This document shows positions 3,695-5,289 of a DNA stretch of 5,350 nucleotides, piece by piece. The stretch lies in IMG/VR virus record IMGVR_UViG_2734482540_000012. The stretch is one strand, 5' to 3'. Positions within the stretch are counted from its first letter, which is position 1, and each line of letters begins with the position of its first letter. Made by a program: the position numbers and the translations under genes. The notes below the pieces were generated by a model. That model was given only the letters and a program-made list of their open reading frames with translations. It was not told the DNA's origin and made no database searches. The DNA comes from a virus (Duplodnaviria; Heunggongvirae; Uroviricota; Caudoviricetes).

Positions 3695-3850
3695 TAGACT
3701 GGCCCCCTGAATCTCCAGACAACCAGTATCACTTAAATAAGTGATAGTCTTAATACTAGTTTTTAGACTAGTCATTGGAGTACAGATGATTGATGTCTTA
3801 GGGCCGGAGAAACGCAGACGGCGTACCACACAGGAAAAGATCGCAATTGT
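3695..3850 (+). mobile_element. IS2 left-end fragment (positions 1-156 of IS2, including IRL and the first 21 codons of insC)
   Basis: Begins TAGACTGGCCCCCTGAATCTCC, the IS2 left terminus as I recall it. All 156 bp are identical to 4361..4516 in this window. Identity stops abruptly after GCAATTGT at 3850. Confidence 0.85.
3786..3850 (+). pseudogene. insC: insC remnant (first ~21 codons of IS2 OrfA, then read-through into IS21-family sequence)
   Basis: ATG at 3786 is at the same offset (+91) from the IS2 terminus as the insC ATG at 4452 in the second copy. Encodes [22 protein letters not shown], then diverges. Confidence 0.6.
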
Positions 3851-4360
3851 GTCAACGCCACGATGTTTGACCGTTATTTGCCATTTTCATGCCCGCTAAA
3901 TACTTTCGTTACTGATGCTGTCCGCTTTCCACCATTTCATCATCACTGATTGGCGTTGTGTTTTTGGTCAGCACTCCAGCTTTACGTTTCTCTTTTAACC
4001 GGTAACTCTCTCCTTTGATATTCAGCGTGGTTGAGTGATGTAGCAGCCGATCCAGGATCGCTGTTGCCAGTACGTGATCTCCGAACATTTCTCCCCAGTC
4101 TGCGAACCCTTTGTTTGACGTCAGTATGATGCTCGCTTTTTCATATCGACGGTTCAGTAGCCGGAAGAACAGACTGGCTTCCTCTCTGTTCATCGGCAGA
4201 TAGCCTATTTCATCCAGGATCAACACCCGGGCATAACTCAGTTGCTGTAGCTGACGCTCCAGCCGGTTTTCCTGTTTCGCTTTCATCAGTGTCGCGATCA
4301 GTCTGTCCAGTGGCATAAACAGTACCCGATGTCCCGCATCCACCGCTTTCACGCCAAAAA
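3851..4360 (-). mobile_element. IS21-family element, 3' fragment (distal two-thirds of istB plus about 58 bp to the element end)
   Basis: Sequence between the two IS2 left-end copies. Encodes on the minus strand an IstB-like C-terminus (...[11 protein letters not shown]...[17 protein letters not shown]...[27 protein letters not shown]...) matching IS21 IstB as I recall it. The specific IS name cannot be assigned without a search. Confidence 0.75.
3909..4360 (-). pseudogene. istB: istB (IS21-family helper ATPase), 5'-truncated by IS2 insertion; Walker A region missing
   Basis: The ORF-track protein (3909..4388) starts at a TTG inside the IS2 terminus. The native IstB-like sequence begins at about 4358 ([20 protein letters not shown]...) and runs to the stop at 3909-3911. 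The DExx box (ILDEIGY) and C-terminal motifs are present, but no GxxGxGKT P-loop. Confidence 0.8.
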
Positions 4361-4451
4361 TAGACTGGCCCCCTGAATCTCCAGACAACCAGTATCACTT
4401 AAATAAGTGATAGTCTTAATACTAGTTTTTAGACTAGTCATTGGAGTACAG

Positions 4452-4817
4452 ATGATTGATGTCTTAGGGCCGGAGAAACGCAGACGGCGTACCACACAGG
4501 AAAAGATCGCAATTGTTCAGCAGAGCTTTGAACCGGGGATGACGGTCTCCCTCGTTGCCCGGCAACATGGTGTAGCAGCCAGCCAGTTATTTCTCTGGCG
4601 TAAGCAATACCAGGAAGGAAGTCTTACTGCTGTCGCCGCCGGAGAACAGGTTGTTCCTGCCTCTGAACTTGCTGCCGCCATGAAGCAGATTAAAGAACTC
4701 CAGCGCCTGCTCGGCAAGAAAACGATGGAAAATGAACTCCTCAAAGAAGCCGTTGAATATGGACGGGCAAAAAAGTGGATAGCGCACGCGCCCTTATTGC
4801 CCGGGGATGGGGAGTAA
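4452..4817 (+). CDS. insC: IS2 transposase OrfA (InsC), helix-turn-helix DNA-binding component
   Basis: ATG at 4452 ([41 protein letters not shown]...), stop TAA at 4815-4817. Matches IS2 InsC from memory. The ORF track begins earlier at an in-frame GTG (4407). Confidence 0.9.
4769..4775 (+). other. A AAA AAG slippery heptamer: programmed -1 ribosomal frameshift site giving the OrfAB (InsCD) fusion transposase
   Basis: AAAAAAG at 4769-4775 near the end of insC, where the insD frame opens (GTG at 4775). A6G motifs are the established frameshift signal of IS3-family elements. Confidence 0.6.
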
Positions 4818-5289
4818 GCTTAGTCAGCCGTTGTCTCCGGGTGTCGCGTGCGCAGTTGCACGTCATTCTCAGACGAACCGATGACTGGATGGATGGCCGC
4901 CGCAGTCGTCACACTGATGATACGGATGTGCTTCTCCGTATACACCATGTTATCGGAGAGCTGCCCACGTATGGTTATCGTCGGGTATGGGCGCTGCTTC
5001 GCAGACAGGCAGAACTTGATGGTATGCCTGCGATCAATGCCAAACATGTTTACCGGATCATGCGCCAGAATGCGCTGTTGCTTGAGCGAAAACCTGCTGT
5101 ACCGCCATCGAAACGGGCACATACAGGCAGAGTGGCCGTGAAAGAAAGCAATCAGCGATGGTGCTCTGACGGGTTCGAGTTCTGCTGTGATAACGGAGAG
5201 AGACTGCGTGTCACGTTCGCGCTGGACTGCTGTGATCGTGAGGCACTGCACTGGGCGGTGACTATCGGCGGCTTCAACAGTGAAACAGT
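4775..5289 (+). pseudogene. insD: IS2 transposase OrfB (InsD), 3'-truncated (about 171 of about 301 codons retained)
   Basis: Frame encodes [21 protein letters not shown]...[22 protein letters not shown] (track shows M at the GTG), then leaves IS2 at 5289 and ends SAPVI-stop at 5308. The InsD region downstream of ...NSETV (in my recollection of IS2, continuing ...QDVMLGAVERRF... and the DDE catalytic region) is absent from the window. Confidence 0.85.

Follow-up and report, generated by a model that had tools for sequence, protein, structure and literature searches.

Does a 5,350-nucleotide stretch of DNA filed as a Caudoviricetes record in IMG/VR (IMGVR_UViG_2734482540_000012; hereafter the window) document insertion sequences (IS) that transposed into one another, or was one of its joins made during assembly? 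An initial annotation of the letters alone had read positions 3695-5289 as a scar of nested transposition: an IS21-family element in a first IS2, a second IS2 in the istB gene of that element, and a deletion of whatever lay beyond, with an assembly chimera at the repeated IS2 sequence as the alternative. We find that the window is from Shigella sonnei and that it consists of two blocks, 1-4357 and 4361-5350, each 100% identical to known S. sonnei sequence, with only three of the 5350 bases, an AAA, left unmatched. It is probable that the junction at these bases (4357/4361, termed J3), and hence the second IS2 and the direct repeat, is an artefact of scaffolding or gap closure. The segments that meet in the window are these:

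Positions 1 to 102, plus strand: right end of an IS600 (IS3 family) with the transposase stop codon at 57-59; left boundary of the prophage remnant.
Positions 103 to 3694, minus strand: lambdoid prophage remnant of 3.6 kb, recognised by Pfam matches, tRNAs and identity to E. coli prophages.
Positions 3690 to 3694: GTCCG, left copy of the 5-bp target duplication of the first IS2, as seen in two relatives (L032 and L007).
Positions 3695 to 3850, plus strand: IS2-a, corresponding to IS2 1-156, covering the left inverted repeat and orfA codons 1-21.
Positions 3850 to 4357, minus strand: IS21 copy X, right end and distal istB, corresponding to IS21 2130-1623, by reference alignment, PF01695 and NF038214.
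Positions 4358 to 4360: AAA, matching neither IS21 nor IS2; the suspect join J3.
Positions 4361 to 5289, plus strand: IS2-b, corresponding to IS2 1-928/929, with a complete orfA, the A6G frameshift site and a shortened orfB.
Positions 5285 to 5288: ACAG, left copy of the 4-bp target duplication of IS21 copy Y.
Positions 5289 to 5350, plus strand: IS21 copy Y, left end, corresponding to IS21 1-62 and identical at 62 of 62 positions to complete IS21 copies.

The perfect direct repeat on which the initial annotation was built is present. A repeat search of the window recovers it over 156 nucleotides at 100% identity (3695-3850 and 4361-4516), and both copies align without mismatch to positions 1-156, the left end, of a full-length 1331-bp IS2 reference. 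This reference, as well as a complete 2130-bp IS21 flanked by ACAG (L004), was taken from the loci that we fetched, which are designated by L numbers. Positions 1-156 are invariant across all compared Shigella and E. coli copies of IS2, so a perfect match between the two repeats is expected and says little about their history. IS2-b, which begins with the same left inverted repeat (TAGACTGGCCCC...), differs from the reference at 3 of 929 positions over 4361-5289. It contains a complete OrfA (open reading frame (ORF) 4452-4817; NF006928, 'IS2 repressor TnpA', 276 bits against a cutoff of 229), the A6G slip site AAAAAAG read from the sequence at 4769-4775, and an OrfB (ORF 4775-5308) that is cut after residue 173 of 301 and scores 404 bits with NF006918, below the cutoff of 597, because it is truncated.

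The spacer between the repeats is, as initially described, the distal part of an IS21 with a truncated istB on the minus strand, but it ends at 4357 and not at 4360. This copy X shows 1 mismatch in 508 positions to the complete 2130-bp reference, and its right end, read inward, begins TGTCAACGCC... The minus-strand ORF 3909-4388 encodes the C-terminal half of IstB, matching PF01695 (IstB_IS21, E=7e-49) over profile positions 112-238 of 238, as expected of a truncated gene. With NF038214 it reaches 164 bits, which is below the cutoff of 200 because only the C-terminal half is present. The left end of copy Y reads TGTCAGCGCC..., and the two IS21 ends in the window, TGTCAGCGCCA on the left and TGTCAACGCCA on the right when read inward, agree at 10 of 11 positions, in keeping with the terminal inverted repeats of the IS21 family (TGT at the start, ACA at the end). 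The thymines T3850 and T5289 can each be assigned to either of the elements that they adjoin.

What sets J3 apart is the sequence on its IS21 side. At the site of the AAA native IS21 has GAG; the reading ...GCTCTTGGCG is shared by all 23 IS21 copies that the fetched loci contain. Among nine full-length IS2 pairs or composites, seven have a perfect 5-bp duplication and native target sequence up to the left end of IS2; of the two exceptions one (L009, at 14950) is rearranged and lacks the duplication, and the other (L025) was not assessed. Extra bases beside the IS2 left end were seen in none of the nine examined, so that the AAA is not what IS2 insertion leaves. IS2-b, in comparison, has its right end outside the window and three non-native bases in its left flank. 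Moreover, J3 itself has no counterpart: in none of 5426 complete E. coli genomes or the PLSDB plasmids is it spanned by a match to a 120-bp junction probe (megablast), and the places covered to at least 80% (4 and 2 records) match as two pieces separated by about 500 bp and represent another insertion site. J3 was not found either by exact DNA scans of genome, viral and metagenome contig collections, and none of the products of the three ORFs that cross it occurs in a collection of 15 billion proteins. Exact look-ups that included products of ORFs beginning beside J3 did not reveal it either, but led to two informative drafts, L050 and L061. Each of the ten fetched loci that extend past the IS2(156)/IS21 junction (L007, from strain 53G, L031-33, L051, L052, L054 and L057-59) has native IS21 across position 1623, where copy X stops in the window; L051 represents 12 further similar places, which were listed but not read.

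A nested insertion would be recognised by native target sequence at the IS end and by recurrence in independent assemblies, and at J3 we found neither. All edges of the two blocks are repeat boundaries: the second block begins with the first base of IS2, and the window stops 102 bp inside IS600 on one side and 62 bp inside IS21 on the other. The insertion of a second IS2 into istB is therefore doubtful, given three untemplated bases, a junction that is absent elsewhere and, as described below, an N gap in related drafts. An assembly chimera at repeated IS sequence is now favoured instead, with the difference that the suspect join lies at 4357/4361 and not inside the shared IS2.

In contrast to J3, the structure to its left, an IS21 in an IS2 in a prophage, is genuine; it has become fixed in S. 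sonnei and belongs to a known kind. Window positions 1-4357 are 100% identical to S. sonnei CP022459.1 (L032) and 99.93-99.98% identical to 53G and two other complete chromosomes. The same prophage/IS2(1-156)/IS21 junctions are present in S. sonnei 53G, 4822-66 and several complete chromosomes, which backs the initial claim that IS21 inserted into IS2 near position 156. Spanning the IS2(156)/IS21 junction is a chimeric ORF of 37 amino acids (3786-3899) that is annotated in 53G (SS53G_4459) and in 4822-66, and exactly two deposited proteins, those of these two strains, correspond to it. The arrangement was found in no complete E. coli genome. In the relatives the whole structure is flanked by GTCCG, the right-hand copy lying next to the IS2 right end in L032 and L007, and the first IS2 is thus a simple insertion.

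The same relatives reveal what became of the IS21. It runs from its right end to position 59 and there joins IS2 position 203 via a 7-bp microhomology, CAACATG (12599-12605 in L032, reverse complement; the same in L007, L031 and L033), which indicates that IS21 1-58 and IS2 157-202 were deleted after the insertion. IS21 copy X in the finished S. sonnei genomes has therefore lost its left end and is immobile. Its far junction is deleted in all relatives, so that its own 4-bp duplication is not visible. IS21 positions 56-65 form a palindrome, CAACATGTTG.

At the right-hand edge the initial annotation had postulated a loss of DNA beyond 5289. Window positions 4361-5350 are identical at 990 of 990 positions to the aerobactin (iuc) island of S. 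sonnei 53G (HE616528.1, L010), at about 4.058 Mb. The order in this island is IS2 1-928, a complete IS21, and IS2 from 925 on, with ACAG flanking the IS21 and CGGGG flanking the whole composite. Many S. sonnei genomes, 53G among them, have an annotated fusion ORF of 177 amino acids over the IS2(928)/IS21 junction, and two single-nucleotide polymorphisms (SNPs) of IS2-b, 686A and 905T, are, in the sampled copies, specific to the IS2::IS21 copy of the aerobactin island. Thousands of E. coli records contain the 62 bases that follow 5288, immediately before istA and in many genomic contexts. The edge at 5289 is thus an insertion junction and not the edge of a deletion; the exact IS21 left terminus (62/62) and the ACAG insertion junction known from 53G refute the postulated loss. 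The search for target duplications that had been suggested as a check accordingly returned GTCCG around the first IS2 in the relatives and ACAG around the island IS21 in 53G.

Two side observations concern the IS21 copies of this kind. In two S. sonnei chromosomes (L009 and L013, from about 12644 onward) the island IS21 is followed by an arsenical-pump-like gene and not by the remaining IS2, which suggests a rearrangement at an IS21 copy. Furthermore, IS21 has duplicated ACAG both in an E. coli plasmid (L004, 3501-3504 and 5635-5638) and, independently, in an S. sonnei IS2 (L010, 10511-10514 and 12645-12648), which may hint at a target preference of IS21.

Related draft scaffolds bear on the region beyond copy X. 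In every finished genome read at this locus IS21 is uninterrupted at the J3 site and is followed by the rest of the first IS2, whereas three drafts have three different IS2-bearing pieces, in the same orientation, after a truncated IS21. The scaffold UDZE01000194.1 (L050, 5720 bp) shares with the window the IS600 edge, the prophage, IS2(1-156) and the IS21 fragment; it then has NNNNNN at IS21 position 1656 and, after these, exactly one complete IS2 (1-1331) that stops at the contig end and shows 15 differences from the IS2 copy of the window. This IS2 looks like a collapsed repeat contig that was appended by the scaffolder. The scaffold CXJL01000062.1 (L061) is native through 1623 up to IS21 position 1445, where N and a different IS2-bearing contig follow. 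That contig is made up of a transposase fragment (635-1316), which appears IS630-like by inspection alone and is unmatched in the other fetched loci, and of IS2 from position 63 on, which the fragment abuts.

Many other drafts join a right-end-proximal IS21 fragment to unrelated DNA via N at IS21 positions 1577-1662, a zone close to a site (about 1600) at which S. sonnei IS21 copies differ by a 1-nucleotide indel. The clustering in this zone is biased, as the loci were retrieved via truncated IstB products that start there, and we have downgraded it as independent proof of a systematic contig break. In at least one S. sonnei IS21 copy (L040, L068 and L070) a 1-nucleotide deletion in an A5 run at about IS21 1600 splits istB into ORFs of 114 and 147 amino acids. 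Joins of 1-6 N are present in S. sonnei drafts L016, L037, L039, L041, L045, L049, L050, L061-L064, L066, L067 and L069. They give apparent nested or inverted IS structures, such as two IS21 right ends head to head in L039, and scaffolds joined in this way are unreliable as evidence for transposition. L016, in which IS2::IS21 lies in melB, provides the only second context of the IS2(928)::IS21 junction. It was considered as proof that the composite transposes and was rejected: it has N at the internal join and mosaic SNPs (274G together with 686A/905T), and is itself a mis-path.

Every segment has been identified, as have the four junctions and, in relatives, the target duplications, and J3 was found in none of the other sequences searched; from this we infer that J3 is a product of assembly. 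An IS2 inserted beside the 80-amino-acid gene of the nin region, duplicating GTCCG, and IS21 then entered this IS2 at about position 156, killing it. The finished genomes show the continuation, a further 2.07 kb of IS21 and then the remainder of that IS2. Positions 4361-5350 are a copy of another locus, namely the aerobactin-island IS2 that carries IS21 at 925-928. Scaffolding or gap closing with short reads would have joined a contig ending in the multi-copy IS21 to a contig that starts at base 1 of the multi-copy IS2 and whose other end is fixed in place by the unique island junction. The AAA would be three filler bases between the joined contigs and, as a matter of speculation, three N's converted to A. 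If J3 is artefactual, the 156-bp repeat is a single IS2 left end represented twice and not a second insertion.

Several points weigh against an origin of J3 in assembly. Unlike the other drafts the window has no N at J3, and its continuity was asserted by a program or a person. The exact IS2 terminus at 4361 is also expected of a true insertion, and L050, where an IS2 of the same orientation occupies this site, could also reflect a real insertion that the assembler failed to resolve. In addition, the clustering of draft breakpoints at IS21 1577-1662 is, as said, biased by retrieval, and the sampled finished genomes may miss some lineages of S. sonnei.

The absence of N, the exact first base of IS2 at 4361 and the IS2 of L050 also speak for a real order, in which an IS2, either an ordinary one or the 3.46-kb IS2::IS21 composite mobilised in trans, entered istB of copy X in a particular strain or lineage. 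The result would be a three- or four-deep nest, an IS21 in an IS2 in an IS21 in an IS2 in the prophage. Such an event would have precedents, since IS2 and IS21 repeatedly insert into each other in E. coli and Shigella and IS-within-IS insertions have been noted in Shigella reference genomes (Hawkey et al. 2020, PMC7373316), and IS2-b has both SNPs of the composite as well as its IS21 junction. We nevertheless regard a real order as unlikely. It has to account for three untemplated bases at J3 where other IS2 insertions have native flanks, for a junction that is found in no other assembly while istB is intact in 10 of 10 read-through loci, and for a draft (L061) that is native through the site. 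The diagnostic SNPs lie at least 686 bp from J3 and so do not link J3 to the composite, of which no finished genome has a second copy. The more specific version, in which the 3.46-kb island composite, its own transposase gene being broken, was mobilised in trans via its intact IS2 ends into the nested IS21, is decidedly improbable. If true, it would amount to a four-deep nest and to a new non-autonomous composite element.

A join made in vivo is a different matter. J3 could be an illegitimate or IS-mediated rearrangement between the prophage and aerobactin-island loci, an inversion or a deletion ending at the IS2 left end. Rearrangements at IS21 sites do occur in S. sonnei (L009 and L013), inversions containing or flanked by IS elements have been reported for this species (PMC12795559), and filler bases are possible at illegitimate joins. 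IS2, however, moves by a copy-out/paste-in mechanism via a minicircle (PMC3299598), which leaves no one-ended joins, J3 was found in no other genome, and an anatomy of two blocks bounded by repeats is more simply explained by scaffolding; we consider such a rearrangement very unlikely. The minicircle mechanism also suggested a source for the AAA, as spacers of 1-2 bp have been described, but without retention on insertion (PMC3299598). A retained spacer was rejected as the origin of the AAA, for lack of such retention and of extra bases at the examined IS2 left ends. Finally, the history in which a second IS2 in istB was followed by a deletion of everything past 5289 takes up the fact that IS2 homology stops at 5288/5289. 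What follows is an exact IS21 left terminus (62/62), and 53G has the complete element, the rest of the IS2 and ACAG, which leaves this history next to no probability. Thus, a scaffolding or gap-closure join remains the probable origin of J3.

The prophage that harbours the first IS2 had been called probably defective because its nin region is cut off from the upstream early genes, and this is borne out more strongly than claimed. It is a 3.6-kb dead, defective remnant between two insertion sequences, with IS600 on the left (boundary at 102/103) and IS2 on the right (from 3695); in the relatives only 42 bp of a phage replication (DnaB-like) gene are left beyond the IS2 before unrelated DNA begins. 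The remnant retains an 80/85-amino-acid gene (3317-3559/3574), RusA (2943-3317) and the antiterminator Q (2092-2946), with RusA and Antiterm recognised as Pfam matches, as well as two tRNAs, a DUF3927 gene, an IraM-like gene and a truncated DUF1737 gene. It is 98-99% identical to E. coli prophages and 100% identical to S. sonnei CP022459.1. Window positions 1-102 have 100% matches in thousands of E. coli records, annotated as 'IS3-like element IS600 family transposase', and this IS600 end sequence recurs within S. sonnei loci. The DUF1737 gene (ORF 56-244, minus strand) has lost its C-terminus to IS600. The window begins and ends inside repeats, as a draft contig does.

A few further features of the remnant may be recorded. 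A tRNA-Arg (anticodon TCT) and a tRNA-Met-type tRNA (anticodon CAT) lie downstream of Q on the minus strand, at 1737-1813 and 1914-1989; tRNA cargo at this position is typical of lambdoid phages. The intact prophages L030 and L035, otherwise 99% identical, lack the segment 1152-1856, which comprises a 117-amino-acid ORF and the tRNA-Arg and appears to be variable cargo. At 851-1040 on the minus strand there is a full-length match to the Rfam small RNA STnc100 (RF02076; 132 bits, gathering score 47). The plus-strand ORF at 490-825 (111 amino acids) had no Pfam hit in our scan of the window ORFs; its E. coli relatives are annotated as anti-adapter protein IraM, with a PmrD-family hit in precomputed tables.

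Neither an artefactual join nor a real insertion involves a new kind of element. The genuine IS21 in an IS2 in a gutted prophage is an already catalogued kind of IS decay in S. sonnei and adds no new biology. What the window does provide is a caution: joins in IS-rich Shigella drafts mimic nested transposition, including its precise IS ends and perfect direct repeats, and without comparative data an evolutionary history is easily built on a scaffold join.

Compared with known systems, each segment of the window has a close counterpart. IS2 is an IS3-family element of 1331 bp with orfA (HTH) and orfB (DDE/rve), a -1 frameshift and a 5-bp target duplication. The window copies are 99.7-100% identical to full-length copies, but neither is complete: IS2-a stops at 156 and IS2-b at 928, where IS21 interrupts the DDE domain. 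IS21, which is among the twelve IS of S. sonnei 53G (Hawkey et al. 2020, PMC7373316), has one operon, with istA upstream and the helper ATPase gene istB on the right-hand side, and makes a 4-bp duplication. Its complete relatives are 2130 bp long, with the termini TGTCAGCGCC... and ...GGCGTTGACA, 4-bp flanking repeats, an IstA of 390 amino acids (NF033546, 286 bits, cutoff 160) and an IstB of 265 amino acids, and are named 'IS21-like element IS21 family' by RefSeq. The relatives that carry IstA are 99.5-100% identical to the fragments in the window, which itself lacks istA and retains only 508 bp from the right end of one IS21 and 62 bp from the left end of a second. The prophage-remnant locus of S. 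sonnei (53G ADUU01000128.1, CP022459.1, CP041322.1 and CP037997.1) shares with the window the IS600 boundary, the prophage genes, the IS2 insertion site and the IS2(156)/IS21 junction. In this locus IS21 runs to position 59 and then IS2 continues at 203, whereas the window jumps to IS2 base 1 after IS21 1623. Finally, the IS2::IS21 composite in the iuc island of 53G shares 686A, 905T and the junction ACAG/TGTCAG with the window, but its left flank is island DNA with CGGGG, whereas that of the window copy is istB.

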